Of a stretch of 47,041 nucleotides of DNA, positions 21,652 to 43,233 are shown piece by piece (the stretch's first letter is position 1; every line of letters starts with the position of its first letter). A model generated the notes under the pieces. It had not been told where the DNA came from. It saw nothing but the letters and a program-made list of their open reading frames with translations, and ran no database searches. A program made the position numbers and the translations under genes. This stretch comes from Dichotomicrobium sp. (lineage in GTDB: Bacteria; Pseudomonadota; Alphaproteobacteria; Rhizobiales; Rhodomicrobiaceae): the NCBI GenBank assembly GCA_046543175.1, contig JBKGZY010000001.1, forward strand, positions 1 through 47,041, in the 5' to 3' direction.

Positions 21652-21654
21652 GTA

Positions 21655-24151: not shown

Positions 24152-24979
24152 GTGTCTGATCCAGAACCAGTATTGGATCCGCAGCCTTGCGTCGGCACCG
24201 CCGGCGCTCTGGAGCAATCGTATCTGAATGTCGACCGGGTGCATAAACGGTTTGGCTCGCTTGAAGTCTTGAAGGGCGTCTCGCTTCAGGCGGCGGAGCA
24301 CCAGGTGGTTTCCCTCATCGGCGCTTCCGGATCGGGCAAGAGCACGCTGCTGCGCTGCATCAATCTCCTCGCCATTCCCGACAAGGGCGATATCTGGATA
24401 GATGGCGTCCGCCTGCCGCTGTCCTCCGGCGACCGTCCCCATCGGCGCATCACCGACAAGAAGGCCGTCCGGCTGATGCGCGCCCGGCTCGCAATGGTGT
24501 TCCAGGATTTCAACCTTTGGGCACATATGACGATCCTGGAAAACGTCATGGAAGCGCCCGTTCAGGTTCTCGGCGCGAGCCGGGCCGAGACACGGGAAAA
24601 GGCCGAGGCCCTGCTCGAGCGCGTTGGCATCGCGGACAAGCGCGACAACTACCCCTCACAGCTTTCCGGCGGTCAGCAGCAACGCGCGGCAATCGCCCGT
24701 GCACTGGCGATGGAGCCGAAAATCCTGCTTTTCGATGAGCCGACCTCCGCGCTCGATCCCGAGCTTGTCGGCGAGGTGCTCAGGGTCATGCGCGATCTCG
24801 CCGAGGAAGGACGGACCATGCTTGTCGTGAGCCACGAAATGAGCTTCGTACGCGAGGTTTCGAACAAGGTGATCTTTCTGCACCGGGGCCTGATCGAGGA
24901 AGAGGGCGCGCCTTCCGAGCTGTTTCGCGCGCCGAAAACCGAAGCCTGTCAGAAGTTTCTCTCAAGCGTCATCCGATGA
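24152..24979 (+). CDS. Polar amino acid ABC transporter ATP-binding protein (HisP/AotP type)
   Basis: Walker A GASGSGKS, LSGGQQQR, LLFDEPTSALDPE, H-loop; start approximate (GTG 24152). Confidence 0.9.
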   Translation: MSDPEPVLDPQPCVGTAGALEQSYLNVDRVHKRFGSLEVLKGVSLQAAEHQVVSLIGASGSGKSTLLRCINLLAIPDKGDIWIDGVRLPLSSGDRPHRRITDKKAVRLMRARLAMVFQDFNLWAHMTILENVMEAPVQVLGASRAETREKAEALLERVGIADKRDNYPSQLSGGQQQRAAIARALAMEPKILLFDEPTSALDPELVGEVLRVMRDLAEEGRTMLVVSHEMSFVREVSNKVIFLHRGLIEEEGAPSELFRAPKTEACQKFLSSVIR

Positions 24980-25028
24980 CCGATTTTTCTGGCAATTTTA
25001 AAGTGTCTGAAAACAGGAGGGCTAATAC

Positions 25029-25784
25029 ATGCGCATAGGAAAAGGTCTGGCTTCGACCGCCGTGATGGTGGTTGGACTGGCATTCGGATTGGCCAGCGTG
25101 AAGGCACAGGACACGATCAGGATCGCGACGGAAGGCGCTTATCCGCCGTTCAACATGAAGGACGCCAGCGGTGAGTTGATCGGCTTTGACGTCGATATCG
25201 CCAAGGCGCTTTGTGCGGAGATGCAGGCGGATTGCGAGATCGTCGCCCAGGATTGGGACGGCATCATCCCGGGGCTCGTCGCGGAGAAATACGACGCCAT
25301 CGTTGCCTCAATGTCGATCACGCCCGAGCGCGACGAAAAGGTCGATTTCACCAACCACTATTACTCGAACTATCTGCGCATCGTCGCCAAGACCGACAGC
25401 GGTATCGGCGGACAGGACGACCTGACTGGCAAGACGGTCGGGGCCCAACGCGCCACCATCGCCGCGGGCTGGGCCGAGGACAATCTCGGCCGTGCCTCCA
25501 CGGTCAACCTCTATGACACGCAGACCGCCGCATACAGCGATCTCGAAGCGGGCCGCCTCGATGCGCTGATCTCCGACGTCTACCCTGCCTACGACTGGAT
25601 GAAGGACAAGGACGGCTATGAATTTGTCGGCGAGCGGATCGATATCGACGACAAGATCGCCATCGCCGTGCGTGAGGGCGACGATGAACTGCGCGACAAG
25701 TTCAACGAGGCGCTGAAAGCGATCCGCGACAGCGGCAAGTACGCGGAGATCAACGAGAAGTATTTCCCCTTCGACATTTACTGA
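25029..25784 (+). CDS. Polar amino acid ABC transporter substrate-binding protein (Lys/Arg/Orn/His type)
   Basis: Signal peptide, ATEGAYPPFN, GFDVDIA, QDWDGIIPGL, SMSITPER; AGGAGG RBS. Confidence 0.92.
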   Translation: MRIGKGLASTAVMVVGLAFGLASVKAQDTIRIATEGAYPPFNMKDASGELIGFDVDIAKALCAEMQADCEIVAQDWDGIIPGLVAEKYDAIVASMSITPERDEKVDFTNHYYSNYLRIVAKTDSGIGGQDDLTGKTVGAQRATIAAGWAEDNLGRASTVNLYDTQTAAYSDLEAGRLDALISDVYPAYDWMKDKDGYEFVGERIDIDDKIAIAVREGDDELRDKFNEALKAIRDSGKYAEINEKYFPFDIY

Positions 25785-25815
25785 TCGCGTTGTTCAGCGA
25801 TGGGAAGATAACACC

Positions 25816-25845
25816 AATGCCGCGCGGATCTCCGCGCGGCATTTT
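25816..25845 (+). terminator. Intercistronic hairpin after the binding-protein gene
   Basis: AATGCCGCGCGGA-TC-TCCGCGCGGCATT perfect inverted repeat ending in ATTTT. Confidence 0.55.
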
Positions 25846-25871
25846 GCTATGAATTCTTGCTATTTGCGCCA

Positions 25872-26594
25872 ATGAATCTCGGCATCATTGACTTGGGCCT
25901 TCTGAGCTTCGGCGACACCGGCTGGGGCGATGAACTTTTGGCCGGCTGTCTGGTCACCCTGCAGCTCGCGCTATCGGCGCTGGCCATAGGCTTGATCCTC
26001 GGGCTTCTGCTTGCCGGGGCAAAGCTGTCGCGGTTCGCGGTTCTGCGCGCCGTAGCGGAGGGCTACACCGCCTTCATCCGGGCAACGCCGGAATTTCTGA
26101 TCCTGTTGCTGGTCTATTTCGGCAGCGAACGCGCGATCCGCTCATTGCTGGGCATGATCGGCGTATCGGGAAACTTCGAGATGCCACCCTTTCTCGCCGC
26201 CATGATCGGATTGGCGGGGATTTTCTGCGCCTATGCCGCCGAGGTGTTTCGCGGTGCCTATCTGGCGGTACCGCGTGGACAGATCGAGGCAGCCATCGCC
26301 TGCGGCATGTCCGGCTGGCAAGTCTTCAACCGCGTCCGCCTGCCGCAAATGTGGCGTTTCGCAATTCCCGGTCTCGGCAATCTCTGGATGGTTTTGCTCA
26401 AGGATACCTCGCTGGCGGCCGTCATTGCCGTGGACGACCTGTTACGCCAGGCAAAAATCGCCAGTGAAGTCACGCGCGCGCCGCTGACCTTCTATCTGGC
26501 CGCCGGAGCGCTCTACCTGGTGTTGACGGGGCTGTCCGACATCATGCGCCAGCGGCTTGAGCGGCGTTCGCAGCGCGGTATCGCGAGGGCGTGA
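25872..26594 (+). CDS. Polar amino acid ABC transporter permease (HisQ type)
   Basis: GWGDELLAG, IRATPE, EAA loop AEVFRGAYLAVPRGQIEAA, LLKDTSL. Confidence 0.9.
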   Translation: MNLGIIDLGLLSFGDTGWGDELLAGCLVTLQLALSALAIGLILGLLLAGAKLSRFAVLRAVAEGYTAFIRATPEFLILLLVYFGSERAIRSLLGMIGVSGNFEMPPFLAAMIGLAGIFCAYAAEVFRGAYLAVPRGQIEAAIACGMSGWQVFNRVRLPQMWRFAIPGLGNLWMVLLKDTSLAAVIAVDDLLRQAKIASEVTRAPLTFYLAAGALYLVLTGLSDIMRQRLERRSQRGIARA

Positions 26595-26596
26595 GG

Positions 26597-27364
26597 ATGG
26601 ACGCGTTTCTCCGTTCTTATCTCGACGGCAAGTTCTGGCTTTCCGATACGCTTTGCGCGGGTGTAAGGCCCGTATCGCCCGAGATGTTCGCCGAGTTCTG
26701 CCCGCGTTTTTTCGACGGATTTTTCGTCAGCATCGAGTTGCTGGTGCTGTCTACACTGATGGGCTTCGTCATCGCGATCGCAGTCGCGCTCGCTCGCACA
26801 TCGGGCGTCGCGATTCTCGGTTTCATTGCCGGTGCGTATATTTATGTCTTTCGCGGCACGCCGGTGCTGGTCCAGCTTTGGGTGTTTTACTATGGCCTCG
26901 GCGCGCTCGGTGCTGACGGGCTGGGGCCCCTCTGGCCGCTGTTCCGCGACGGCTATACGGTCGGGCTCATGGTGCTGACGATCAATACAGCCGCCTATTC
27001 CGCCGAAATCTTCCGCGGCGGGATCGTCAATGTCCCGCGCGGTCAGCTTGAAGCGGCCACGGCGGCGGGCATGGACTGGTGGACGGTGATGCGCCGCATC
27101 GCACTACCTCAGGCGTTGCGCATCGCGTGGCCAGCCTATTCAAATGAAGTCATCCTGCTGATGAAGTGCAGCGCGCTTGTCTCGACGATTACCGTCCTCG
27201 ATCTCATGGGGCAGACCCGAACGATCTTCGCGCGCACCTACAGCCTTGAGATTTTTCTCTACGCTATCGTGCTCTATCTGCTTCTGGCCGGGACGCTAAC
27301 AGTGATCTTGCGGCTGATCGAGTCGCGGATGCGGCTACCGGGCCAAAGCCGCTTCGCCGGATAA
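26597..27364 (+). CDS. Polar amino acid ABC transporter permease (HisM type)
   Basis: FRGTPVLVQL, AEIFRGGI...GQLEAA, NEVILLMK; start 26591 (GTG) or 26597 (ATG). Confidence 0.9.
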   Translation: MDAFLRSYLDGKFWLSDTLCAGVRPVSPEMFAEFCPRFFDGFFVSIELLVLSTLMGFVIAIAVALARTSGVAILGFIAGAYIYVFRGTPVLVQLWVFYYGLGALGADGLGPLWPLFRDGYTVGLMVLTINTAAYSAEIFRGGIVNVPRGQLEAATAAGMDWWTVMRRIALPQALRIAWPAYSNEVILLMKCSALVSTITVLDLMGQTRTIFARTYSLEIFLYAIVLYLLLAGTLTVILRLIESRMRLPGQSRFAG

Positions 27365-30174: not shown

Positions 30175-31476
30175 ATGCCTGAGCCTGTTCTGGCGGCCGG
30201 GCTGGTCGTCCTGCTCTTCCTTCTTCTTGCAGCCGGCATCTGGGTCGCCTTCGCGCTCATCATCGTCGGCGCGCTCGCGATGGCGGCCTTTTCTTCCGCC
30301 CCCGTCGGCCCGGTCTTCGCCACCACCATCTGGAGCGCCAGCCATAGCTGGTCGCTCGCCGCGCTGCCGCTCTTCGTCCTGATGGGCGAAATCATGCTGC
30401 GCACCAATCTCTCGCGCGACCTGTTCTCCGGCCTCGCGCCATGGCTCGCGCGCTGGCCGGGACGGCTCCTGCATGTCAATATCATGAGCTGCGCCATATT
30501 CGCCGCCGTCAGCGGATCGTCAGCCGCAACCGCCGCAACCATCGGCAAGATGAGCATCCCGGCCCTGAGCGACCGCGGCTATCCCAAATCGCTGATCCTG
30601 GGGACGCTGGCCGGATCGGCCACACTCGGCCTCCTGATTCCGCCCTCCATCATCCTGATCGTCTATGGCGTGGCCACGGAACAATCCATTGCCCGGCTGT
30701 TCATCGCCGCCATCCTGCCGGGTCTGATGCTGGTCGCCATTTTCGCGCTCTACATCATGATCCGGGCCTGGCGCGAACCGGACCTGATTCCGCAGGAGCC
30801 GATGAATATGCGCTTCTTCGAGAAGTTGCGCGCCTCGGGTCGTCTACTGCCCGTGCTCGGCATCATAGTGGGCGTCATCGCCAGCATTTACACCGGCGTC
30901 GCCTCGCCGACCGACGCGGCCGCCGTGGGCGTTCTGCTCTCCCTGCTGCTGGCGCTAGCGACGGGCAGCCTGAGCCGCGCGACCTTTACCGAAAGCGTGA
31001 TGAGCGCGACCGTCACCTCCTGCATGATCGCGCTGATCCTGGCGGGCGCGGCCTTCCTGACGGTGGCGATGGGCTTTACCGGCATCCCGCGCGATCTGGC
31101 CGCCTGGATCGGCAGCCTCGGCCTGTCGCCTTATGCGCTGATCGCTGCGCTGACCGTGTTCTTCATCATTCTGGGCTGCTTCCTCGACGGAATTTCCATC
31201 ATTGTGCTGACGACCTCGATCATCATGCCCATGGTGCAGGCCGCAGGGATCGATCCGATCTGGTTCGGCATCTATCTCGTCATCGTCGTGGAGATGTCGC
31301 AGATCACACCGCCGGTCGGCTTCAATCTGTTCGTCATTCAGGGCCTTACGGGAGAGAATATTCTGCGCATTGCGGTGTCGGCCCTGCCGTTCTTCTTCCT
31401 GCTGCTGCTGGCGGTAGTCATCATCACCGCCGTGCCGGAGACAGCGACCTTCCTGCCGAGCTTGATGGACCGTTGA
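30175..31476 (+). CDS. dctM: TRAP transporter large permease DctM
   Basis: LAALPLFVLMG, FAAVSGSS, LGLLIPPSI, QITPPVGFNL; real start ATG 30175. Confidence 0.92.
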   Translation: MPEPVLAAGLVVLLFLLLAAGIWVAFALIIVGALAMAAFSSAPVGPVFATTIWSASHSWSLAALPLFVLMGEIMLRTNLSRDLFSGLAPWLARWPGRLLHVNIMSCAIFAAVSGSSAATAATIGKMSIPALSDRGYPKSLILGTLAGSATLGLLIPPSIILIVYGVATEQSIARLFIAAILPGLMLVAIFALYIMIRAWREPDLIPQEPMNMRFFEKLRASGRLLPVLGIIVGVIASIYTGVASPTDAAAVGVLLSLLLALATGSLSRATFTESVMSATVTSCMIALILAGAAFLTVAMGFTGIPRDLAAWIGSLGLSPYALIAALTVFFIILGCFLDGISIIVLTTSIIMPMVQAAGIDPIWFGIYLVIVVEMSQITPPVGFNLFVIQGLTGENILRIAVSALPFFFLLLLAVVIITAVPETATFLPSLMDR

Positions 31477-31525
31477 TACAACGGTTTCGGACTTGATCCT
31501 GGCAGGAACCTGAACAGCCTTGCCA

Positions 31526-31730
31526 GGCTTCGGCGGAGCGACGGCGCCATCGACACCCAGCCCCCTCGATGATGAGTCTCGCCATGATCGGCGCGCTCAA
31601 CAACGGCGTCAGCGCCGAGAAAATCCGCGCGACAATCATTCACATCGTTGCCATCTATTGCGGCGTGCCGCAGGCGCTGGAATACTTCCGCGCAGTGCAC
31701 GGGGTGCTGGAGGACGCTGGTAAATTCTGG
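31526..31730 (+). pseudogene. Carboxymuconolactone decarboxylase (CMD/AhpD-like) family remnant
   Basis: SMMSLAMIGALNNGVSAEKIR...IVAIYCGVPQALEYFR matches the CMD C-terminal half; N-terminus absent, segment between IGAL and NNG missing, no stop at the expected position. Confidence 0.65.
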
Positions 31731-31779: not shown

Positions 31780-32415
31780 ATGACGGACAAGCCGACGCTG
31801 TATGGCTTCGACGGATCGACCTATGTCCGCACGGTCAGGATGGTGCTTGCCGACAAGGGGATCGAATACGACCAGGTGCCGGTGAACGTGCTCGCGGGCG
31901 AACCGCGCCAGCCGGAACATCTCGCCCGGCATCCTTTCGGCAAGGTGCCGGTCCTCGACATCGACGGCATACGCATCCGCGAGACCGAGGCGATCTGCCG
32001 CTATTTGGACGAGACGCGCCCCGAACCGCCGCTCCGGCCCGACAACGCGAAGGACCGCGCGCGCATGTCCGAGATCATCGGGCTGATCGACAGCTACGGC
32101 TACCCTGCCCTCCTCGGCGTGGCGGGCTATCACCTGTTTCCCGATTTCCTCGGCGGGCCCGACGACACCTTCCGCGCGAACTGTCTTCAGGAATCGGGCA
32201 AGCTGCTCGACCTGCTGATGGAGATCAAGGGCGATGATCCATGGCTGGCCGGGCAAAGGCCGAGCCTTGCGGACTATCTCCTCGCCCCCATCCTGTTTTA
32301 TATTTCCTTAACGCCGGATGCAGAGCGTGTCATGGGGCGGCCCGATGTTCAGAACTGGTGGCAGGCGATCAACAAGCTGGAGACCTTCAAGGCGACCGAG
32401 CCGAACCTCGGCTGA
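31780..32415 (+). CDS. Glutathione S-transferase family protein
   Basis: LYGFDGSTYVRTV, HPFGKVPVL, ETEAICRYLD, SLADYLL; GGGAGGA RBS. Confidence 0.92.
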   Translation: MTDKPTLYGFDGSTYVRTVRMVLADKGIEYDQVPVNVLAGEPRQPEHLARHPFGKVPVLDIDGIRIRETEAICRYLDETRPEPPLRPDNAKDRARMSEIIGLIDSYGYPALLGVAGYHLFPDFLGGPDDTFRANCLQESGKLLDLLMEIKGDDPWLAGQRPSLADYLLAPILFYISLTPDAERVMGRPDVQNWWQAINKLETFKATEPNLG

Positions 32416-32425
32416 CGGCCGCCCG

Positions 32426-34198
32426 ATGGCACCGCGACGGCCGGCCGCGCGGTTCCGAACGCCCGTGCGTCTCGCGCTGACGTTCGCTGTTGCGGTTCTC
32501 ACCACGCACCTAGCCGCCCCGGCTCTCGCGCAGGATCAGCGTGCCGAGCCGGAAGCCGCGTCCGGCCAAGCGGAGAAGGCGCTCGTTGGCGGCGACACGC
32601 AGATGGTCGTGGCGGCGCATCCGCTGGCTGCCGAAGCCGGGCGAGAGGTGCTGCGTGCGGGCGGCGGCGCCATGGATGCGGCCATCGCCGCGCAGATGGT
32701 GCTCAATCTCGTCGAGCCGCAGTCCTCGGGCATCGGCGGCGGCGCGTTCCTGCTCTACTGGGATGCCGACTCGGAGACGCTGACGGCTTACGATGGGCGC
32801 GAGGTCGCGCCGCGCGCGGCGACGCCGGAACGTTTTCTCGATGAAGACAGCGCGCGGCTGCCCTTCGGCGCGGCGAGCACGGGCGGGCTGGCCGTCGGCG
32901 TGCCGGGGCTGTTGCGCATGCTGGAGATGGCGCACCGCGCGCACGGCCGGCTGGACTGGGCCGGGCTGCTCGACCCGGCGATCGATGCCGCGGAGAGCGG
33001 CTTTGACGTGACGGCGCGGCTGAACGGCCTGCTGAAGCGCGGCGCGGAGCGGCTCGGCCCCCAGGCGCGGCGCTATTTCCTCGATGATGCGGGCGAACCG
33101 CATCCCCCCGGCCACCGCCTGCGCAACCCCACACTGGCCGAAACCTTCCGCCGGATCGCCGAAAGCGGGGCCGATGCCTTTTACACCGGCGCGCTGGCGC
33201 GGGATATCGTCAAGACGGTGCGCTCGGCTCACCGCAATCCCGGCGATATGACGCTTGCGGATCTGTCCGGCTACCGCGCCAAGGCGCGCAGGCCGGTCTG
33301 CGGGCCTTATCGGGCGTATCGCGTCTGCGGCATGGGGCCGCCCAGTTCCGGCGGGCTCACCACCCTGCAGGTACTGATGATGCTGGAGCGCTTCGATCTC
33401 GGCGAAAAACCGCTCAACGCGCGGGCGCTCCACCTGATCGCCGAGGCCGAAAAGCTCGCCTATGCCGACCGCGGGAATTACATGGCCGATTCCGATTTCG
33501 TTCATGTGCCGAAGGGGCTGATCGACCGCGACTATCTGCGCGCGCGCAGCCAACTAATTTCGCCGCACCAGACGATGGACCGGGCCGAGCCGGGCGACCC
33601 GCCGGGCCGCGAAGGCATTTATGGCGTGTCACACCAGCCGGAGCAGCCCGGCACCAGCCATATCTCGGCCATCGATGCCGAGGGCAATGTCGTCTCGATG
33701 ACCTCGTCCATCGAGCGCGCCTTCGGCTCGGGCCTGATGGTGCGCGGCTTCCTGCTCAACAACCAGCTCACCGATTTCTCGTTCCGCCCGGCCGACGGCG
33801 ATGGCCGCCCCGTCGCCAACCGTGTCGAAGCCGGCAAGCGCCCACGCAGCTCCATGGCACCGACGATCGCCTTCGACGACGGCGAACCCGTCATCATCAC
33901 CGGATCGCCCGGCGGAAGCCGCATCATCCCCTATGTCCTGAAGTCGCTGATCGGCGTCATCGACTGGGGCCTTGACGCGCAGGAAGCCGCCGCCCTGCCG
34001 AATTTCGCCAACCTAGGCGGCCCGCTGGAACTGGAGCGCGGGCAGGACTGGTCGGCACAGGCGGAGCGGCTGCGCGGCATGGGGCATAACCTGCGAAAAG
34101 CACCGATGACTTCCGGCCTGCACGTCATCGTGCGGCGCGACGAACACATGGAAGGCGGCGCCGATCCGCGCCGCGACGGGGTCGCGCTGGCCGACTGA
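32426..34198 (+). CDS. ggt: Gamma-glutamyltransferase (exported)
   Basis: Signal peptide ending ALA-Q, LVEPQSSGIGGG, DGRE, nucleophile Thr in GTSHIS, LNNQLTDF, KRPRSSM, GSPGGSRI, ADPRRDG. Start 32426 or GTG 32465. Confidence 0.93.
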   Translation: MAPRRPAARFRTPVRLALTFAVAVLTTHLAAPALAQDQRAEPEAASGQAEKALVGGDTQMVVAAHPLAAEAGREVLRAGGGAMDAAIAAQMVLNLVEPQSSGIGGGAFLLYWDADSETLTAYDGREVAPRAATPERFLDEDSARLPFGAASTGGLAVGVPGLLRMLEMAHRAHGRLDWAGLLDPAIDAAESGFDVTARLNGLLKRGAERLGPQARRYFLDDAGEPHPPGHRLRNPTLAETFRRIAESGADAFYTGALARDIVKTVRSAHRNPGDMTLADLSGYRAKARRPVCGPYRAYRVCGMGPPSSGGLTTLQVLMMLERFDLGEKPLNARALHLIAEAEKLAYADRGNYMADSDFVHVPKGLIDRDYLRARSQLISPHQTMDRAEPGDPPGREGIYGVSHQPEQPGTSHISAIDAEGNVVSMTSSIERAFGSGLMVRGFLLNNQLTDFSFRPADGDGRPVANRVEAGKRPRSSMAPTIAFDDGEPVIITGSPGGSRIIPYVLKSLIGVIDWGLDAQEAAALPNFANLGGPLELERGQDWSAQAERLRGMGHNLRKAPMTSGLHVIVRRDEHMEGGADPRRDGVALAD

Positions 34199-34287
34199 CC
34201 GAATGCGTAACCAATTCCCTACGTCCACGGCATCAAGGCATGACGCCGGTCGGCCGGCGAATGTAAGCTCTTCCGCGGAGGCCACGC

Positions 34288-35331
34288 ATGAGCGAACTGG
34301 CGGAAAAGGTCGCGTTCCTGAGCGAGCCCGAGGCTTACGGCCCGGATGTGCGGCATGTCGAGGTGCGCGAGACCCATATGTCGTGGGTGTTCCTGACCGA
34401 AGTGGAGGTCTACAAGCTCAAGAAGCCGGTTACCTACCCGTATCTCGATTTCGGCACGGTGGAGAAACGGCGGCGCAACTGCGAGGTGGAAGTGCGCCTG
34501 AACAGACGGCTGGCCGCCGATGTCTATCTCGGGATCGTCCCGCTACACCGCAAGGCGCGCGGCAAGCTGAGCCTGAACGGTGCGGGCGAGGTCATCGACT
34601 GGCTCGTACACATGAAGCGGCTGCCCGAGGCGGACATGCTGGACCGGCGCATCCTGGACGGCCGCTGTTCGCAAGCGGACATCGAGCCGCTCGGCGGCCT
34701 GCTGGCGAGCTTCTACGCCTCGCTTCCTCCGGAGACGGAATGCGGCCAGGCCTACCTGGACCATCTCCGCCGCGAACAGCCGATCAACCGGTCCGTGCTG
34801 GAAGTGCCGGAACTCGGTCTTGTCGAAAGCGCACAACCGCTGCTCGATGCGCTGGACCGGGCCATCGACCTTTTCCGGCCGAAGCTGGAAGCGCGCATCG
34901 CAAGCGGGTGTATGCGCGAGGGCCACGGCGATCTCCGCCCGGAACATGTCTGCCTCAACCACGACCCGAAGATCATCGACTGCCTCGAATTCAACCGGGA
35001 CATGCGCATCGTCGATCCGTTCGACGAGGTGAACTATCTCGGGATTGAATGCGAGATGCTCGGCGCTGCGTGGATCCGCCCTGCCCTTCTGGAGATCGTC
35101 GATCGTGGTATCGGCCACCGGCCCGAGCCTGATGTGATGGCGCTTTACGGCACGTTCCGCGCCCTTCTCCGCGCCCGGCTGTGTGCCGCGCACCTGCTGG
35201 AAGACGACGTCCGCAGGCGGGACGAATGGAAGCCGCAGGCCTTGGGGTATCTCGCGCTGGCCGAGCGCGAGGCCGTCAATCTTCCATCCCGAGAAGATAG
35301 GAAATCGCGCCCGTCCCACGCAGACACCTGA
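34288..35331 (+). CDS. Aminoglycoside phosphotransferase/kinase-fold protein (COG2187-like, no C-terminal AAA domain)
   Basis: ETHMSWVFL, VYKLKKPV, EVRLNRRLA, catalytic EGHGDLRPEHV, IIDCLEFN; GGAGG RBS. Confidence 0.85.
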   Translation: MSELAEKVAFLSEPEAYGPDVRHVEVRETHMSWVFLTEVEVYKLKKPVTYPYLDFGTVEKRRRNCEVEVRLNRRLAADVYLGIVPLHRKARGKLSLNGAGEVIDWLVHMKRLPEADMLDRRILDGRCSQADIEPLGGLLASFYASLPPETECGQAYLDHLRREQPINRSVLEVPELGLVESAQPLLDALDRAIDLFRPKLEARIASGCMREGHGDLRPEHVCLNHDPKIIDCLEFNRDMRIVDPFDEVNYLGIECEMLGAAWIRPALLEIVDRGIGHRPEPDVMALYGTFRALLRARLCAAHLLEDDVRRRDEWKPQALGYLALAEREAVNLPSREDRKSRPSHADT

Positions 35332-36250
35332 TCGCCTTGGCGATCAGCGGCGCGACCGAAACCACCCGCAGTTTGGGTGCGCTGGCCTGAACCTGAAGGG
35401 CGGAGTCGATGCTGTCGGTGACGACGATCCCGTCGATGGCCGTGCTGTCGAGGAATTCGGCGCTGCCCGCGCCAAACAGTCCGTGCGCCGCAAGTGCATG
35501 GACCCGTATCGCGCCGCGCTCGCGGCAGGCTTCGGCGGCACGCATCATGGTGCCGCCCGAGCCGATCATGTCGTCGACGATGAACACGGACGCATCGGCG
35601 ACATCGCCGGCGAAGAGCGTGCCGGACACGACGCCGCGGCTGCGCCGTTTCTCCATGAAGCCGAAGCCGGCGCTCGCCCCGGTCTCGGCCTCGTAGATGT
35701 CCTTGAGCAGTTGCGCACGCTTCACGCCGCCGCCATCCGGCGAGACGATGGCGACGGGCTGGCCGCGCGTCATTTCGGCGATTATCGAGGAAAACAGGCG
35801 GCGCGTGTCGAGATGAATGGTCTGGCAGCGAAAGGCATTCTGGAACGCCTGCAGATTGTGCACGTCGAGCACCACCACGCGATCCACGCCCACCGCCTCG
35901 AAAAGCTGCGCGACATAGCGGCTGGTGACGGGATCGCGGGCTTTCGTCTGCCGGTCCTTGCGCGCATAGGCGAGGTAAGGCGTTATCGCGGTGACGCGCG
36001 CCGCTCCGTTCTCCTTGCAGGCGGCGATGAAGAACAGGAGCTTGCAGAGCTTGTCATTGGCCGAGGCGTGCGACGTGCCGTTGAGGCTGTGAATGACGTA
36101 GACGTCCTCGTCGCGGACGCTGACAAGCGGTCGCGCCTTGTGTTCGCCGTCCTCGAAATCCCGTTCCTCGTGCGGCTCGATGGTATGCTCGAGCGCGCCG
36201 GCGACCGCACCGCCCAGGACCTGGGAACCTTCCAGTGCAAAGATACGCAT
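35276..36250 (-). CDS. prs: Ribose-phosphate pyrophosphokinase (accessory paralogue)
   Basis: FEDGE, PYLAYARKDR, LDVHN, VSPDGGGVKRA, IVDDMIGSGGT, AHGLF, VTDSI. Confidence 0.9.
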   Translation of the reverse strand: MRIFALEGSQVLGGAVAGALEHTIEPHEERDFEDGEHKARPLVSVRDEDVYVIHSLNGTSHASANDKLCKLLFFIAACKENGAARVTAITPYLAYARKDRQTKARDPVTSRYVAQLFEAVGVDRVVVLDVHNLQAFQNAFRCQTIHLDTRRLFSSIIAEMTRGQPVAIVSPDGGGVKRAQLLKDIYEAETGASAGFGFMEKRRSRGVVSGTLFAGDVADASVFIVDDMIGSGGTMMRAAEACRERGAIRVHALAAHGLFGAGSAEFLDSTAIDGIVVTDSIDSALQVQASAPKLRVVSVAPLIAKAIRCLRGTGAISYLLGMED

Positions 36251-36283
36251 GCGATGAGCTTACGCCACACAGGCCGCAGGTCT

Positions 36284-36297
36284 TTGATAACCATCAA
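36284..36297. promoter_or_regulatory. FNR/FixK binding site (anaerobox) 1
   Basis: TTGAT-AACC-ATCAA, a perfect TTGAT-N4-ATCAA match in a divergent intergenic region. Confidence 0.85.
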
Positions 36298-36330
36298 TCC
36301 GACGGCCTGTAACGGCCGGATCGTACGCAA

Positions 36331-36344
36331 TTGATGACGATCAA
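36331..36344. promoter_or_regulatory. FNR/FixK binding site (anaerobox) 2
   Basis: TTGAT-GACG-ATCAA, a perfect match, 47 bp from box 1. Confidence 0.85.
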
Positions 36345-36397
36345 CGACAAGCCTATCTCCGGGAATACACAATCTTTCAACAGCAGGGAGAAGGCGA

Positions 36398-37099
36398 ATG
36401 ATAACGAATACCGAAGCCCCTTCCCGATTACGCCGGCTGAGCGAGGAGAGCGTCGTCATTGAGCCGCCTGGCCTGCCCGGCGACCTGCGCATCCCCGCAC
36501 AGGCGCATGGGTTGGTGATATTCGCGCATGGCAGCGGATCGAGCCGCAAGAGCCCCCGCAACACCTACGTCGCCGAGGCGCTCGGCGAAACCGGCTTCGC
36601 GACACTTCTGTTCGACCTGCTCACGCGGGAAGAAGAAGCCGACAGGTCCAACGTGTTCGACATCGCACTCTTATCCGACCGGCTGGTCAGCGCGATCAAG
36701 TGGGCGAACGCCGACCCGCGCACCCGCGGTCTTCCCATTGGGTTGTTCGGAGCGAGCACGGGCGCGGCGGCGGCCCTCGTCGCCTCGGCGGCCGCGCAGA
36801 ACCACCACGTCGGTGCCATCGTCTCGCGCGGCGGGCGGCCGGATATGGCCGCCTGCGCCTTCGACTGGGTGAAGGCGCCGACGCTGCTGATCGTCGGCGG
36901 CGACGACACGCAGGTGCTCCGGCTTAACCGCGAGGCCTATGACCGGCTGCATTGCGAGAAGGAAATGATGATCGTGCCGGGCGCCACGCACCTGTTCGAG
37001 GAACCGGGCGCGCTGGACCGGGTCGTCGAGGGCGTCCGGGACTGGTTCGCCCGGCATCTCGCCGCGCCCGCTGGAGCGCAGCAGGGGCGGAGCCGATGA
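36398..37099 (+). CDS. Alpha/beta hydrolase (dienelactone hydrolase-like, PRTase-associated type)
   Basis: FAHGSGSSR, nucleophile elbow GASTG, SRGGRPD, GGDD, GATHLFEEPG. Confidence 0.9.
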   Translation: MITNTEAPSRLRRLSEESVVIEPPGLPGDLRIPAQAHGLVIFAHGSGSSRKSPRNTYVAEALGETGFATLLFDLLTREEEADRSNVFDIALLSDRLVSAIKWANADPRTRGLPIGLFGASTGAAAALVASAAAQNHHVGAIVSRGGRPDMAACAFDWVKAPTLLIVGGDDTQVLRLNREAYDRLHCEKEMMIVPGATHLFEEPGALDRVVEGVRDWFARHLAAPAGAQQGRSR

Positions 37100-37749
37100 C
37101 GTTTCGGGACCGGCGCGAGGCGGGTCGCAAGCTGGGCGATGCCTTGGGCGACTATCGGGGCAAGAACGTGATCGTGCTCGCATTGCCACGCGGGGGCGTG
37201 CCCGTCGGCGCGGAAGTCGCCTCGGCGCTGGACGCGCCGCTCGACGTCTTGCTGGTGCGCAAGATCGGCGTTCCCTGGCAGCCCGAATTGGCAATGGGGG
37301 CGGTCATCGACGGCGCGGAGCCGGTCATCGTGCGCAACGAGGACATCATCGAGCTTTCAGGCGTGTCGGAGGAAGATTTCGCGGCGGCCAGCCGCGCGCA
37401 GCTCAGGGAGATCGAGCACCGGCGCCAGCGTTTTACGGGCAATCGCGCCCGCGCCGACGTCGCGGACCGTACCGCAATCATCGTCGATGACGGCATCGCG
37501 ACCGGCGCGACCGTGCGCGCGGCCATCCGCGGGCTGAGACGCGACAAGCCGGAGAGGATTGTGCTGGCCGTCCCCGTCGCACCGCCGAGCACGGTCGAGG
37601 AACTGAGCGACGAGGTCGATGATGTCGTCTGCCTCGAGACGCCGGCGGCGTTCCGGGCGATCAGCCTGTATTATCGCGAATTCAACCAGGTGAGCGACGA
37701 TGAAGTCGCGCGCGTGCTGGCCGGTTCGGGTGTGGGACAAGCCGGCTGA
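37096..37749 (+). CDS. Phosphoribosyltransferase (COG1926-like)
   Basis: FRDRREAG, LALPRGGVPV, PRPP loop IVDDGIATGAT, LAVPVAP; ATGA coupling to the hydrolase. Confidence 0.92.
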   Translation: MTFRDRREAGRKLGDALGDYRGKNVIVLALPRGGVPVGAEVASALDAPLDVLLVRKIGVPWQPELAMGAVIDGAEPVIVRNEDIIELSGVSEEDFAAASRAQLREIEHRRQRFTGNRARADVADRTAIIVDDGIATGATVRAAIRGLRRDKPERIVLAVPVAPPSTVEELSDEVDDVVCLETPAAFRAISLYYREFNQVSDDEVARVLAGSGVGQAG

Positions 37750-37762
37750 GAATGGCGCGCCG

Positions 37763-38857
37763 TTACAGCACGAGTTCCAGCTTTCCCTCGCCGGACCGCC
37801 TGACCCCGCTGCCGAATTTCCGGCATTCCCGGTCCATCCGGTCTCCCAGCCAGCTCGTCTCCTCGGCCGAAGCGCGCTGGAGCCGGAATTTGCGCAGGCG
37901 AAACGGCAGCATTTCGAGGCGCACAAGGGTTTTTCGTCGTGCGTCGATATCGAGCAGGTAGCCGAGCACGAGGTCCGGCCTGTAGTCCTCGTGCCCGCCA
38001 ATACCTTCATAATCGTTCAGGAAGTCGCCGCAGCCATAAAAGATGGACCTGCCCTTGTGGACCTCCACGGCTTTCGGGTGGTGCGACGAGTGGCCAAAGA
38101 CGATATCCACGCCCGCCCGATCGATCAGCGCATGGGCGAAGGCGCGGTGGGCATCCGCGATCTGGTAGCCCCAGTTCCCGCCCCAATGGACAGACAGCAT
38201 CACGAGGTCGTCAGGCGCGCTGCGTGCGGCGATATCGCCGGCGATCCTGTCGAATGACGCCTCGCTCGTATCTGGCAGGAAATTGATACCCGGCCTATCT
38301 GTCGTGGCCGCCCAATGCGCGGGCGTGCCGCTCGATGGGCAGGCGACCGCGAACAGGTGCACACGCTGGCCTGTTTTCGCTGCCAGCGTGGCGGGCGAGG
38401 CCGCCCGGTCGGCGTCGCGCCCGCCGCCGGCGATTGCAATGCCGGCCACCGAAAGCGCGTCCAGCGTGTCGATCAGGCTTTGTGCGCCCCAGTCGGCGGC
38501 GTGGTTGTTCGCCAGAACGCAGCAATCGGCCCCGAAAGCGGTCAGGCATGGTACATTCCGCGGGTTCATGCGGTAGTTGATGCCCTTCGGCTCGGGCACG
38601 CCATCCCCCGTGATGCTCGTCTCGAGATTGATAATGCGCAGGTCGGGCGCGCGCGCCCGCAGCACTGCCAACGTATCGCCCCATATGTAATCGAATGACA
38701 CCGGACGGCGTATCTCGCCGGATCGGGACTCGGCCAGCCGCACATACTCGAGGGCCGAGCCGACATAGGGTTCGTATAGTTTCGAATCGCAGGGATGCGG
38801 CAGGATCTGGTCGATCCCGCGCCCGGTCATGACGTCGCCGCACAGGAAGATTCTCAT
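37763..38857 (-). CDS. CapA/PGA_cap family metallophosphoesterase
   Basis: GDVMTGRG, NLETSIT, LANNHAADWG, SVHWG, GHSSHH, YGCGDF; no signal peptide. Confidence 0.9.
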   Translation of the reverse strand: MRIFLCGDVMTGRGIDQILPHPCDSKLYEPYVGSALEYVRLAESRSGEIRRPVSFDYIWGDTLAVLRARAPDLRIINLETSITGDGVPEPKGINYRMNPRNVPCLTAFGADCCVLANNHAADWGAQSLIDTLDALSVAGIAIAGGGRDADRAASPATLAAKTGQRVHLFAVACPSSGTPAHWAATTDRPGINFLPDTSEASFDRIAGDIAARSAPDDLVMLSVHWGGNWGYQIADAHRAFAHALIDRAGVDIVFGHSSHHPKAVEVHKGRSIFYGCGDFLNDYEGIGGHEDYRPDLVLGYLLDIDARRKTLVRLEMLPFRLRKFRLQRASAEETSWLGDRMDRECRKFGSGVRRSGEGKLELVL

Positions 38858-39075: not shown

Positions 39076-40128
39076 ATGCCATCAGAATTCATCAGCCGTC
39101 TGCGGGTTCCAGCGCTGACGGCAGCGCTTATCGTCTGTGCCGCGCTCGGGACCGCGTCGGGGATTCGTGCGCAAAACGCCGTGCCGGTCGAGGTCGAGAC
39201 GGCGAAAAGCGATTCCGTACGCGACGAGATAGAGGTCGTCGGCGACATAAAGGCGGACGAAAGCGTCGTCATTCGCCCGGAAATCGCCGGTCAGATCAAG
39301 GAGATCCATTTCGAGGAAGGCCAGGGAGTCGATGAAGGCGCCCTGCTGTTCTCGATGGACGATGAAATTCTCTCCGCCGAACTGGACGACGCCTCCGCCG
39401 CGCTCGAACTGGCCAAGCGCAACTTCGACAGGTCGAAGCAGCTTTACAGTCGGCAGGTCGGCACGGAGCGCACGCGGGACGAAGCTCTCGCCTCCATGCA
39501 GAGCGGCGAGGCGAAGGCCGCACTGGCGCGCGCCCGGCTCAGCAAAACGAAGATCCATGCCCCGTTCAGCGGGATCGTTGGTTTCCGCGAGGTCAGCGTC
39601 GGCGCTTACGTCTCCGCGGGCACCGATCTCGTCCGGCTGGTCAAGATCGATCCCGTAGAAATCGACTTCCGCGTGCCCGAGCGGTTCCTGCCCGTCCTCG
39701 CCGAAGGCCAGCAGATCACCGCACGCGTCGATGCCCTTCCCGACCGGGAATTTGACGGGGAGGTCTTCGCGCTCGACAACGTCGTCGACATCAACGGCCG
39801 CAGCATCCGCGTGCGCGCCCGCGTTCCGAATCCCGACGGCGTATTGCGCCCGGGCATGTTCGCGCGCGTCAACCTGACGACCGAGTTGCGCAGGAATGCC
39901 GTCATCGTGCCCGAGGGCGCGATCGTGCCCACGCTTGAGGGCGAATATGTCTATCGCGTCGTGGACGGCAAGGCCGAGAGAACCGACGTCACGATCGGCC
40001 GGCGAATGACCGGCGAGGTCGAGATTGTCGAGGGGCTGTCGGAGGGCGACACGGTGATAGTCGCGGGACAGCAGAAGGTTCAGGAAGGCGCGGCGGTCCA
40101 GCCGCTGGATGCGCAGGGCGGCGCCTGA
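39076..40128 (+). CDS. RND efflux periplasmic adaptor (MFP)
   Basis: N-terminal hydrophobic segment, lipoyl halves (IRPEIAGQI, IHAPFSGIVG), LRPGMF, GLSEGDTVI. Confidence 0.92.
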   Translation: MPSEFISRLRVPALTAALIVCAALGTASGIRAQNAVPVEVETAKSDSVRDEIEVVGDIKADESVVIRPEIAGQIKEIHFEEGQGVDEGALLFSMDDEILSAELDDASAALELAKRNFDRSKQLYSRQVGTERTRDEALASMQSGEAKAALARARLSKTKIHAPFSGIVGFREVSVGAYVSAGTDLVRLVKIDPVEIDFRVPERFLPVLAEGQQITARVDALPDREFDGEVFALDNVVDINGRSIRVRARVPNPDGVLRPGMFARVNLTTELRRNAVIVPEGAIVPTLEGEYVYRVVDGKAERTDVTIGRRMTGEVEIVEGLSEGDTVIVAGQQKVQEGAAVQPLDAQGGA

Positions 40129-40146
40129 TCGAGGGATCCCCGCAAA

Positions 40147-43100
40147 ATGGGACTAACCGAACTATGCGTTCGTCGCCCCGTCTTCGCGACGGTGCTCAGC
40201 CTGATCGTGTTTCTGCTCGGGCTGGTGGCCTATGAGCGGCTGAACATACGCGAATACCCCAACATCGACCCGCCGGTCGTGAACGTCAACACGACCTATC
40301 AGGGCGCCAGCGCGGCGATCATCGAAACGCAGGTCACACAGGTTCTGGAGGAGTCGCTGGCCGGCATCGAGGGCGTGGACTACATCACCTCGATCAGCCG
40401 CGAGGAAGAAAGCCAGATCACCGTCAACTTCCGGCTGGCCCGTGACCCGGACAGCGCCGCAGCCGACGTGCGCGACCGCGTGAGCCGCGTCCGCGGGCGT
40501 CTGCCCGAGGAAATCGAGGAGCCGGTGATCCAGAAAGTGGAGGCCGACGCGCAGCCGGTCATCTACCTGGCCTTCTCGAGCGAAAAGCATTCCTCGCTGG
40601 AAATCACCGATTACGCGGACCGCTACGTCAAGGACCAGTTGCAGACGCTGCCCGGTGTCGCGGAGGTCCGCATTTTCGGCGAGCGTGTTTACTCGATGCG
40701 GCTGTGGCTCGATCCGCTGCGCATGGCGGCTTACGACCTGGCGCCGCAGGACATCGAAAATGCGCTGCGCCGGCAGAACGTGGAGGTGCCGGCCGGGCGC
40801 ATCGAAAGCCGGATGCGCGAATTCACGGTGCTTTCGGAAACCGACCTGCGCACCCCGGAGCAGTTCAACGATCTCGTCATCAAGCGCGAAGACGGCTACC
40901 TCGTCCGGCTTCAGGACATCGGCCAGGCGAAACTCGGCCCGCTCGACGAACGCCGCGTCGTGCGCTTCAACGGCGAGCCAGCAATCGCGCTCGGGGTCAT
41001 CAAGCAGGCGACGGCGAACCCGCTCGACGTGTCCGATGCGGTGCGCGAAGTGCTGCCGCGCGTCCTCGACACCCTGCCCGACGGGATGAAGGTGGAGGTT
41101 GCGCACGACAAGTCCGTGTTCATCCAGGAATCGCTCGACAACGTGTATATCACGATCGGCGAGGCGGTGATCCTGGTGCTGGGCATCATCTTCTTCTTCC
41201 TGCATTCGGTGCGGGCGACCTTCATTCCACTCGTGACGATCCCGGTCTCGCTGGTTGGCGCATTTGCGCTGATGTTCATGTTCGGCTTCTCCATCAACAC
41301 GCTGACCCTGCTGGCCTTCGTGCTGGCGATCGGGCTCGTGGTGGACGACTCCATCGTCATGCTGGAGAACATCCACCGTCACGTCGAAGAAGGCGAGCAT
41401 CCGTTTACCGCGGCGATCCGGGGATCGAAGGAGATCGCCTTTGCCATCGTGGCGATGACATTGACGCTGGCGGCGGTATATATCCCCATCGGCTTCCTGA
41501 CCGGCAAGACCGGGCGGCTGTTCACCGAGTTCGCCTGGACGCTGGCCGGCGCGGTGCTGGTCTCCGGCTTCGTCGCGCTGACACTGTCGCCGATGATGTG
41601 CTCCAAGCTCTTGAAGCACGAGACCCACCAGAACGTCGTGATCCGCGCCATCGAATGGTTCATCCGCCGCCTGATTCGCGGATACCGGGCCCTGCTGGGG
41701 CTGTGCCTGCGCGCGCGCCCCCTGATCCTGGCAATCGGCCTCGCCGTGGCGGGTGGCGGCGCATACCTGTTCACCCAGCTCAACTCCGAACTGGCACCCT
41801 ACGAGGACCAGGGCACGATCGTCAGCGTGTTCACCGCGCCGCAGGGCGCGACCATCGACTACACCGACAAATACGCCAAGCAGCTCGAGGGGATCTTCGC
41901 CGAGACCGACGACGTGGCGCGTTATTTTGTGGTTTCGGGCTTTCCGACCGTGACGCAGGGCATCGGCTTCGTGAAGATGGCGCCGTGGGACGAGCGCGAC
42001 CGCACGCAGCAGGAGATCGCCCAGGAACTCCGCCCGAAGATGTTCGGCGTTCCCGGCGTAATGGCGTTCCCGGTCAATCCGCCGCCGCTGGGCCAGAGCG
42101 TGCGCGACCAGCCGATCCAGCTTGTGGTGCTCACCTCCGAGCCGTATGCCAAGCTGAACGGCTATGTCGAGCAGATCCTGCAAGAGGCGCAGGACAGCGA
42201 CATGCTGCAGAATCTCGATAGCGACCTGCGCCTGAACAAGCCGCAGCTCAAGGTCGATGTCGACCGGGACAAGGTGGCGGCGCTGGACGTGGATATCGAG
42301 ACGCTCGGGCGCACCCTGGAGACGTTGCTGGGTGGTCGGCAGGTCACGCGCTTCAAGCGCGAGGGCCAGCAATACGACGTCGTCGTGCAGGTCGAGGCCG
42401 AGGATCGCGTCACCCCCGGCGACCTTGAGAAGATTTATGTACGCTCGAACACCGGCGCGATGATCCAGCTTTCCAATCTCGTTACGCTGCGCGAGACGGT
42501 CGCGCCGAAGGAGTTGAACCACTTCAATCAGCTCCGCTCCGCGACCTTCACCGCGACTCTGGCCGACGGCGCGACGCTCGGTGAGGCGTTGACCGAATTC
42601 GAAGAGGTGGTGCGCAGCGTCATCCCACCGAGCGCGCAGATCGACTACGGTGGCCAGTCGCGCGAGTTCAAGGAATCCAGCGCGGAAATCTACGTCACCT
42701 TCATCCTGGCGCTGGCCTTCATCTATCTTGTGCTGGCGGCCCAGTTCGAGAGCTTCATCGACCCGCTGACCATCATGCTGACGGTGCCGCTGTCGATCAC
42801 TGGCGGGCTGCTCGGCCTGTATCTTACCGGCGGGACGCTGAACATCTACAGCCAGGTGGGCCTCGTGACCCTGATCGGGCTGATCACCAAGCACGGCATC
42901 CTGCTTGTCGAGTTCTCCAACCAGATGCGCCAGCGCGGCAAGGACATCCACGATGCCGTTCTGGAAGCCGCGACGCTGCGTCTGCGCCCGATCCTGATGA
43001 CCACCGGCGCGATGACCTTCGGCTCGGTTCCGCTGGCGCTCGCAAGCGGGGCGGGAGCGGAAAGCCGGCAGTCGATCGGCGTCGTGATCGTCGGCGGGCT

Positions 43101-43233
43101 GCTGGTGGGCACGCTGTTCACGCTGTTTGTCATCCCGGTGGTGTACACCTATTTCGCGCGCAGCAAGCGTCCCGGGCCGATCACCGAGTCCGAGGAAGCC
43201 CCGGCGGGCTCGGCGCCAAGCCCGGCCGAATAG
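40147..43233 (+). CDS. RND efflux permease (AcrB/AcrD/AcrF family)
   Basis: RRPVFA, REYPNID, AIGLVVDDSIV, LIGLITKHGIL, RLRPILMT; 1028 aa. Confidence 0.95.
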   Translation: MGLTELCVRRPVFATVLSLIVFLLGLVAYERLNIREYPNIDPPVVNVNTTYQGASAAIIETQVTQVLEESLAGIEGVDYITSISREEESQITVNFRLARDPDSAAADVRDRVSRVRGRLPEEIEEPVIQKVEADAQPVIYLAFSSEKHSSLEITDYADRYVKDQLQTLPGVAEVRIFGERVYSMRLWLDPLRMAAYDLAPQDIENALRRQNVEVPAGRIESRMREFTVLSETDLRTPEQFNDLVIKREDGYLVRLQDIGQAKLGPLDERRVVRFNGEPAIALGVIKQATANPLDVSDAVREVLPRVLDTLPDGMKVEVAHDKSVFIQESLDNVYITIGEAVILVLGIIFFFLHSVRATFIPLVTIPVSLVGAFALMFMFGFSINTLTLLAFVLAIGLVVDDSIVMLENIHRHVEEGEHPFTAAIRGSKEIAFAIVAMTLTLAAVYIPIGFLTGKTGRLFTEFAWTLAGAVLVSGFVALTLSPMMCSKLLKHETHQNVVIRAIEWFIRRLIRGYRALLGLCLRARPLILAIGLAVAGGGAYLFTQLNSELAPYEDQGTIVSVFTAPQGATIDYTDKYAKQLEGIFAETDDVARYFVVSGFPTVTQGIGFVKMAPWDERDRTQQEIAQELRPKMFGVPGVMAFPVNPPPLGQSVRDQPIQLVVLTSEPYAKLNGYVEQILQEAQDSDMLQNLDSDLRLNKPQLKVDVDRDKVAALDVDIETLGRTLETLLGGRQVTRFKREGQQYDVVVQVEAEDRVTPGDLEKIYVRSNTGAMIQLSNLVTLRETVAPKELNHFNQLRSATFTATLADGATLGEALTEFEEVVRSVIPPSAQIDYGGQSREFKESSAEIYVTFILALAFIYLVLAAQFESFIDPLTIMLTVPLSITGGLLGLYLTGGTLNIYSQVGLVTLIGLITKHGILLVEFSNQMRQRGKDIHDAVLEAATLRLRPILMTTGAMTFGSVPLALASGAGAESRQSIGVVIVGGLLVGTLFTLFVIPVVYTYFARSKRPGPITESEEAPAGSAPSPAE

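Follow-up and report, generated by a model that had tools for sequence, protein, structure and literature searches.

Low-oxygen gene islands of proteobacteria, among them the lxa locus of Burkholderia cenocepacia and the FixK2/FnrN islands of rhizobia, are the closest described relatives of the locus analysed here. A link to ribose and phosphoribosyl pyrophosphate (PRPP) has been proposed for lxa, whose deletion impairs ribose use (PMC3721108), and the PRPP synthetase gene (prs) bll3116 of Bradyrhizobium is induced in microoxia (PMC6515984); here and below, statements about sources cited by PMC number cover the accessible parts of those sources. We analysed a 47,041-nucleotide (nt) stretch of DNA from Dichotomicrobium sp. 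(contig JBKGZY010000001.1, positions 1 to 47,041; hereafter the window), in which five neighbouring genes encode a kinase of the aminoglycoside phosphotransferase (APH)/choline-kinase fold, a second PRPP synthetase (Prs), an alpha/beta hydrolase, a phosphoribosyltransferase (PRTase) and a CapA-like protein. Similar to the lxa and rhizobial islands, the locus has FNR-family boxes, and it shares their neighbours USP, HspX, CBS, BON, PfkB, PpsA, P-type ATPase, beta-CASP and FtsH. The accessible published descriptions of those islands contain no prs-kinase pair. Additionally, bll3116 differs from the window prs in sitting with genes for thymidine phosphorylase and an MBL RNase, and the window Prs misses the cut-off of the family PRK07199.

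The second relative is the hypoxia (DosR) regulon of Mycobacterium tuberculosis, which includes Rv0571c (a putative PRTase), Rv0573c (pncB2) and Rv0574c (CapA-like); Rv0574c and Rv0573c form one operon, and all three genes are induced late and only 3.5-4-fold (PMC5309233, PMC3177182, PMC7873932). With the DosR block Rv0569-Rv0574c/Rv2004c our locus has in common that the same families recur, here together with the prs-kinase pair. A sequence-only reading of the window had proposed this parallel. It holds at the level of families and is not new, since proteobacterial low-oxygen islands have been reported to share families with the DosR regulon (PMC3721108, PMC12071387) and conservation in environmental bacteria has been noted (PMC5309233).

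Dedicated Prs enzymes are also known from the salvage of nicotinamide adenine dinucleotide (NAD). Shewanella and Acinetobacter carry a prs paralogue with nadV, in operons regulated by NrtR (PMC2330246), which resemble our locus in providing a second prs for NAD salvage beside the housekeeping copy. The signal there is ADP-ribose acting through NrtR, whereas here it is predicted to be O2 acting through FNR, with PncA and PncB as partners and the kinase always attached. NARP1 (Adps + Namat) likewise dedicates a Prs homologue to rebuilding NAD. Unlike NARP1, the present system has PncB-type rather than Namat or Nampt neighbours and was not found in viral contigs.

A prs and a kinase form the fixed core of the locus

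In order to define which genes belong together, we compared two sets of loci. The prs-anchored set comprised 92 fetched loci, of which five duplicates were dropped to leave 87; many are from Mesorhizobium, so they are not independent. The kinase-anchored set comprised 80 metagenome loci, 36 of them flanked by 1.2 kb or more on each side. The kinase lies within the retrieved DNA of 82 of the 87 prs loci, at a distance of 700 nt or less in 80, and three of the five misses are contig ends. Conversely, prs is present in 61 of the 80 kinase-anchored loci and in 33 of the 36 that are well flanked. The arrangement of the pair varies: 59 of the 82 pairs are convergent, 14 tandem downstream, eight divergent and one tandem upstream. 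Near-abutting convergent ends of kinase and prs recur in these loci (59/82).

Whole genomes were searched with two profiles, both of which separate cleanly from paralogues. Among 301 Alphaproteobacteria genomes, this prs class was found in 18 and the kinase in 17 (16 at E<1e-100 and one split copy). All 17 kinase genomes are among the 18 prs carriers, none has the kinase alone, and 14 pairs lie within 2 kb. A sample of 301 Pseudomonadota genomes, which shares two genomes with the first, gave the prs class in 12 and the kinase in 10, all 10 among the 12; one partial match in this sample (G525, E 7e-78) was left unclassified. The pair is rare in Bacteroidota, where it was found in the centre genome only (1/251). 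On plasmids, prs lies within 5 kb of the kinase in 15 of the best 17 kinase records. We conclude that the fixed core of the locus is a pair, which the sequence-only reading missed, of a Class X prs and an H-type kinase (both defined below), and that this pair travels together across several bacterial phyla.

The window Prs is a Class X PRPP synthetase with a partly changed ADP site

The window Prs scores 246 bits against TIGR01251 (cut-off 113) and thus passes as a PRPP synthetase. It reaches neither the class I model PRK01259 (226 bits, cut-off 297) nor PRK07199 (124 bits, cut-off 322). Two members of our set, WP_093410443.1 and MGC1239985.1, are labelled BacClassX by Karki et al. 2026 in their tree (PMC13252144), and in our tree, which has two outgroups, both on long branches, the window Prs groups with BacClassX-labelled sequences at 99/97. 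On sequence grounds we assign it to PRPS Class X. The preprint of Karki, Meller and Cunningham defines this class by sequence only; the terms 'Class X', kinase, neighbourhood, salvage and hypoxia are all missing from its accessible main text (PMC13252144). Our search found no publication that describes the pairing of Class X prs with the kinase, the promoter of this pair or its setting among NAD genes, within a literature in which supplements of regulon papers may list a Class X gene and subscription journals were thinly covered.

Residues were counted in 55 aligned members and mapped onto those of the E. coli enzyme (PMC6332680); one prs with an internal stop (from locus L105) was excluded. 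The equivalents of the catalytic and ribose-5-phosphate residues F35, E39, R96, H131, D170, K194, R196, D220, D221 and T228 are invariant (55/55). At the site for adenosine diphosphate (ADP), the D144 equivalent is replaced in each of the top five residue classes listed, that of S81 is glycine in 49 and that of F313 leucine in 35 of the 55 members, and the S103 equivalent is also changed. Additionally, two class-specific substitutions lie in active-site loops, Q97 to lysine (55/55) and A132 to asparagine (54/55). Judged from these residues, Class X Prs is likely to be less sensitive to ADP than the class I enzyme.

Broken copies of a Class X prs (by internal stop or split) or of the kinase (one split copy) occur at L105:8001-8984, in genomes G138 and G439, at L203:10025-10956 and in genome G271 (C18:207806-208805). 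In viral contigs no Class X relative was confirmed, and phage matches were at most 39% identical.

The kinase defines an AAA-less H-type subfamily

No Pfam or NCBIfam family matched the window kinase. Its predicted structure (mean predicted local distance difference test score, pLDDT, 93.6) has the APH/choline-kinase fold (VIA, Z 18.0, root mean square deviation 4.4, 276 residues aligned), although none of the solved structures is closely related. K43, E68, D215, H220 and D231 are invariant in 70 aligned kinase sequences, and the C-lobe has conserved arginines at R203, R240, R291, R295 and R297. The bilobal fold, the Lys-Glu pair, the HxD and the second Asp of the APH/choline-kinase superfamily are present. 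The terminal Asn of the HxDxxxxN motif is not; it is replaced by His in 70 of 70 aligned kinases, while AAA-fused proteobacterial forms have Asn. We refer to the two forms as H-type and N-type.

The sequence-only reading had likened the kinase to Rv2004c, a likeness that was not supported in the form proposed. The window gene stops after 347 codons and has no AAA_33 domain; the AAA part finds a match only in a separate 520-amino acid APH+AAA_33 gene elsewhere in the genome (C237:4566-6128), which has what we take to be the layout of Rv2004c. In a tree of 41 domains, AAA-fused proteobacterial and actinobacterial kinases, including a copy from a Streptomyces island, form a clade (100/97) that excludes the window kinase; beside that clade lies a single protein with the H motif, itself a fusion with NUDIX and AAA. 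By its sequence, the window kinase is thus paralogous to the APH+AAA type, a member of which this genome holds on C237.

Among 120 longer kinase homologues, the H-type domain is fused to Prs in two (P0206, P0209) and to CapA in one (P0208); singleton fusions may be neighbouring genes run together. A set of unannotated proteins of 860-950 amino acids (P0121-P0202), whose named members are mostly Betaproteobacteria, has the order N-type APH, AAA_33, H-type APH.

Partners of the pair point to PRTase, hydrolase and pyridine salvage genes

The sequence-only reading had taken the five genes for one fixed module. All five occur together in only six of the 87 prs loci (four of them in the same genus) and four of the 80 kinase loci. 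The families do recur together across phyla, as it had proposed. Partners in the 87 prs loci are PRTase (31), hydrolase (14), CapA (13), pncB (10) and pncA (8); in the 36 well-flanked kinase loci they are PRTase (20), hydrolase (17), pncB (11), pncA (7), CapA (7) and HPF (7). A protein with HhH_8/HhH_5 domains, like the PolX N-terminus, is encoded in about 19-22 of the 87 loci (e.g. L047:2440-3351), in one (L016) between prs and hydrolase.

Fusions join several partners directly. A relative of the window hydrolase is joined to the PRTase in 108 of 120 longer PRTase homologues; in the same 120, the PRTase is fused once to NAPRTase and twice to an isochorismatase/PncA domain. The layout of TT1426-type PRTase plus hydrolase, which we take to be that of Rv0571c, is present here as split but coupled genes and in Rhodococcus as a fusion. 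The CapA-like protein scores 248 bits against PF09587 (cut-off 27), conserves the metal motifs GDVM, NLET, ANNH, SVHWG and GHSSH, and falls below the cut-off of the MslH epimerase (62 vs 700).

Conserved neighbourhoods support the suggestion of the sequence-only reading that the locus serves NAD salvage, although it missed the link to pncA and pncB. These neighbours of the pair span Hyphomicrobiales, Bacteroidota and Verrucomicrobia, and in Bacteroidota, Verrucomicrobia and Hyphomicrobiaceae loci pncA-pncB is divergent from prs-kinase(-CapA). Burkholderia JP2-270 has the order pncB-kinase-split prs-nadE plus a PRTase, Methylocella has nadE-prs-kinase-hydrolase, and Azospirillum has pncB-prs. 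In the present genome pncA and pncB are convergent on another contig (C86:904-2932), and this PncB is 60% identical to a cassette copy.

Actinobacterial plasmid islands, used as stand-ins for the Rv genes, hold relatives of the PRTase-hydrolase (49-56% identical), CapA (50%) and pncB (51%). Unlike the window, they carry a kinase that is fused to AAA and has another motif, and in the three plasmids searched there was no Class X prs and no H-type kinase. On a Streptomyces plasmid island pncB lies beside the AAA-fused kinase. The prs to which the PRTase-hydrolase fusion (49%/56% identical) is coupled on a Rhodococcus plasmid belongs to a different class; by these sequences, PRPP supply was recruited independently there. 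Among PDB matches for the kinase, PRTase, hydrolase and CapA-like protein there was no chain of Rv2004c, Rv0571c, Rv0574c or Rv2030c.

FNR boxes occupy a conserved position upstream of prs

Both boxes in the window are perfect TTGAT-N4-ATCAA. The 2.8 Mb genome has five such boxes against about one expected, and other spacer lengths give 0-2 each; thus two of the five are in the window. One of the three others precedes an open reading frame that we take to encode cbb3 oxidase subunit I. To analyze box position across relatives, we scored boxes with at least 8 of 10 matches and a centre at -43 to -39 from the ATG, with the expectation taken from shuffles. Such a box precedes prs in 41 of the 132 loci with enough upstream DNA (0.155 expected). 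The same position holds a box in 8/135 kinase, 4/34 hydrolase (8 more near -65), 0/57 PRTase and 0/16 CapA genes.

FNR class II promoters have their box centred about -41.5 from the transcription start. The box at -40.5 together with TAAGCT 7 nt before the ATG would give this geometry with a start at the prs ATG itself, and the prs transcript is likely leaderless, made from a low-oxygen promoter. Box sequence, conserved position and a cognate regulator in the genome all agree with a predicted FNR/FixK class II promoter, whose start site is placed by geometry only. The regulator (C21:17730-18473) has an N-terminal cluster of four Cys and an ESVSR helix, which we read as FnrN/FnrL-type. The low-oxygen control proposed by the sequence-only reading is therefore supported, as a prediction, for prs and the hydrolase-PRTase genes. 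Its arrangement of all five genes around the boxes stood only in part: both boxes lie in the prs/hydrolase gap, and the 300 nt 5' of the kinase and of the CapA gene hold no box at two or fewer mismatches. An FNR half-site considered 5' of the kinase was rejected, with no match within two mismatches, and a degenerate box lies at -55.5 from CapA in two of four genus relatives. Instead, a CATGAC ... TGTAAG motif pair precedes the kinase in the window and in 7/7 close relatives among those listed. From its sequence this appears to be a promoter of unassigned sigma class, and the kinase seems to have a promoter of its own. A scan for sigma-70 promoters and terminators returned 0 promoters and 3 terminators, which is chance level.

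Anatomy and surroundings of the window locus

All five open reading frames were found in the sequence at the positions and strands of the sequence-only reading, as were its translational coupling and two perfect boxes (Table 1). Kinase and prs converge and overlap at their 3' ends by 56 nt (35276-35331), and the hydrolase and PRTase genes overlap by ATGA, as in translational coupling. The prs gene diverges from hydrolase-PRTase over a 147-nt gap; the kinase and CapA-like genes point inward, convergent on this central unit. Family matches were Pribosyltran_N/TIGR01251 for prs, Hydrolase_4/DLH for the hydrolase, Pribosyltran for the PRTase and PGA_cap for the CapA-like protein. No Kyte-Doolittle 19-mer exceeds 1.6 in any of the five proteins, which is compatible with a cytoplasmic location.

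Table 1. Features of the prs-kinase locus in the window.
Feature	Position	Strand	Remarks
APH/choline-kinase-fold protein, AAA-less H-type subfamily (HGDLRPEH)	34288..35331	+	347 amino acids; predicted fold, invariant residues, separate clade
Second PRPP synthetase (prs), Class X of Karki et al. 2026	35276..36250	-	324 amino acids; catalytic residues kept, ADP allosteric site partly changed
Ser-nucleophile alpha/beta hydrolase (GASTG)	36398..37099	+	closest solved relative PDB 2O2G
Orphan type I PRTase, TT1426 family, intact PRPP loop (DDGIATGAT)	37096..37749	+	
CapA/PGA_cap-family metallophosphoesterase-fold protein, accessory member	37763..38857	-	ATG at 38857
CATGAC ... TGTAAG promoter-like motif pair 5' of kinase, not an FNR box	34239..34269	+	putative function
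Predicted -10 element TAAGCT, ends 7 nt before prs ATG	36257..36262	-	from sequence; spacing conserved in relatives
Perfect FNR/FixK box, centre 40.5 nt before prs ATG	36284..36297	.	
Perfect FNR/FixK box, centre 60.5 nt before hydrolase ATG	36331..36344	.	

The assembly is 96% complete and belongs to the genus of Dichotomicrobium thermohalophilum. Its housekeeping prs lies on another contig (C136) and is 34% identical to the window prs. Rfam gave 0 matches in window positions 26000-47041, and PADLOC matched 0 of the 5 proteins. A gamma-glutamyltransferase gene (32318-34198) lies 5' of the kinase and is kept in the genus; an RND efflux pair (39076-43233) lies 5' of the CapA gene. At 31424-31730 a short carboxymuconolactone-decarboxylase-like remnant runs into a glutathione S-transferase reading frame. 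Further upstream, we take 96-12045 to encode oxalate catabolism (CoA ligase, formyl-CoA transferase, oxalyl-CoA decarboxylase, GntR, a tripartite transporter and a succinyl-CoA ligase-like pair) and 12303-27364 presumably encodes uptake and catabolism of ectoine/hydroxyectoine (PLP-GntR regulator, TRAP transporter, racemase, dehydratase, cyclodeaminase, hydrolase), with what appears to be an amino-acid ABC transporter as well.

Discussion

The explanation we put forward, with about an even chance of being right, is that the locus supplies PRPP at low oxygen for nicotinate/NAD salvage and for the orphan PRTase-hydrolase, around a core of Class X prs and kinase. As O2 falls, the FnrN/FnrL-type regulator would bind both boxes and switch on the leaderless prs and the hydrolase-PRTase transcripts. 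Class X Prs, with catalytic and ribose-5-phosphate residues kept and the Asp144, Ser81 and Phe313 equivalents of the ADP site lost, would for that reason make PRPP at high ADP, when the housekeeping enzyme is throttled. This PRPP would enter nicotinate salvage (PncA/PncB, then NadD/NadE) and the orphan PRTase-hydrolase pair. The kinase would phosphorylate a small molecule of the ribose type, either ribose itself or a riboside, and thereby feed Prs or the salvage branch; CcrZ, of the same fold, acts on ribose in vitro (PMC9135335). Within this explanation, the chance that the kinase acts on a ribose-type molecule, as opposed to regulating Prs directly, is a little under even. The CapA-like protein may free ribose phosphate from ADP-ribose or NAD-type pyrophosphates, the least supported of these steps.

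Several observations weigh against this explanation. Expression, regulator binding and enzyme activities of the locus are predictions, and no FNR box precedes the kinase gene of the window, which seemingly has its own promoter. In the fold search no substrate family stands out; the top scores (Z 18.0-16.4) are tied among maltokinase, APH, choline, glucosamine and homoserine kinases, CcrZ reaches only Z 12.9, and those who described it are not convinced that ribose is the real substrate (PMC9135335). The kinase also occurs apart from a Class X prs, in that 84 of the 120 longer homologues are N-type APH-AAA joined to the H-type domain, and other H-type fusions involve RtcA (2; P0204, P0207), HhH (3) and NUDIX+AAA (1). 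RtcA in P0204 and P0207 is the RNA 3'-phosphate cyclase. A Variovorax plasmid carries a kinase copy with no prs within 9 kb, and prs occurs without the kinase in three genomes (G326, G555, G583); four Azospirillum brasilense plasmids that carry the prs are missing from the 50 kinase matches listed. Half of the ADP-site positions (5/10) are kept or conservatively changed: Q136, R49, R105, R102 (to Lys) and S308 (in 42/55). PncB is absent from 77 of the 87 prs-anchored loci, and in this genome pncA/pncB on C86 are unlinked to the window, with no box found. Finally, low-oxygen island genes are enriched near prs (USP 24, HhH 19 and FtsH 15 of 87), and some of the enrichment of NAD genes may be an island effect because every such island gene is enriched nearby.

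Two alternatives concern the kinase and Prs themselves. The kinase could be a regulator that binds or phosphorylates Class X Prs (elsewhere N-type APH-AAA) as an on/off switch on entering or leaving hypoxia. Its near one-to-one inheritance with prs, although the genes are usually convergent and separately promoted, would fit this, as would the invariant Asn-to-His change in the metal-binding motif, the fusions to Prs and to the N-type paralogue, and the class-specific invariant K98, N132 and H146 in Prs near nucleotide and regulatory loops. We consider it unlikely, since the catalytic residues typical of small-molecule APH kinases are all kept (K43, E68, D215, D231), the solved folds most like it belong to kinases of small molecules, and a direct operon link of pncB and kinase exists. 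A change of acceptor, in which Class X Prs pyrophosphorylates ADP-ribose (like phage Adps) or uses kinase-made ribose 1,5-bisphosphate and, with PncB and NadE, rebuilds NAD without NadD, draws on the Adps precedent (PMC12774641) and on the invariant loop substitutions at Q97 and A132. The C-lobe arginines of the kinase would suit an anionic acceptor, and three annotated cassettes have pncA, pncB and nadE but no annotated nadD, an absence that a housekeeping NadD (not searched for) would make unremarkable. With an ordinary ribose-5-phosphate loop (DD-x-x-S/T-GGT), a PncB-type partner rather than Nampt or Namat, and only those distant phage matches in place of a viral Class X copy, this proposal is highly improbable.

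Other alternatives concern the company that the pair keeps. Shared regulation alone, with the five genes brought together by shuffling in a mobile low-oxygen stress island (USP, HspX, CBS, BON, HPF, PfkB, PpsA), would account for the rarity of the complete set, for generic island genes neighbouring prs as often as the PRTase does, for CapA relatives in unrelated contexts such as beside glycosyltransferases, and for the published overlap of island and DosR content (PMC3721108, PMC12071387). The accessory genes are better explained in this way than the core is: the pair is kept in four orientations and in fusions, a linkage much closer than that of any island gene, and PRTase-hydrolase, PRTase-NAPRTase, PRTase-PncA and kinase-CapA fusions tie members pairwise. 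As an account of the whole locus it is thus distinctly unlikely. The sequence-only reading had offered a reversible modification for dormancy, an idea that found no support beyond being possible. In that scheme the PRTase would phosphoribosylate a (macro)molecular acceptor, with kinase, phosphoesterase and hydrolase modifying or erasing the mark, or the set would heal RNA ends on hibernating ribosomes. The enzymes do resemble writers and erasers, the kinase is fused to RtcA twice and to AAA_33, and HPF, baeRF12 and beta-CASP are neighbours. We give it little credence, as no acceptor gene co-occurs, the PRTase is missing from 56 of the 87 prs-kinase loci, RtcA is in one of the 87, and the PRTase fusions point to pyridine salvage enzymes. 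Overall, the earlier interpretation was partly supported.

A bolder form of the salvage explanation is unlikely. In it, Class X Prs and the H-type kinase would be two enzymes that depend on each other and have new chemistry or control, the kinase activating or feeding a Prs that ignores ADP or takes ADP-ribose or ribose 1,5-bisphosphate. Together with PncA, PncB, NadE, the PRTase, the hydrolase and the CapA-like esterase, this pair would constitute a hypoxic pathway for rebuilding NAD that has not been described before, and the orphan DosR block of mycobacteria would be its downstream half.

These results place a PRPP-synthetase class, so far only a branch in a 2026 tree, in a genomic context for the first time and provide it with a partner and a predicted regulator. 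They also split an unannotated kinase family into diagnosable subtypes. Lastly, they tie four orphan families shared with the mycobacterial dormancy regulon to one question that harmless cultured rhizobia would allow to be tested, namely how PRPP is supplied and NAD salvaged when oxygen is low.

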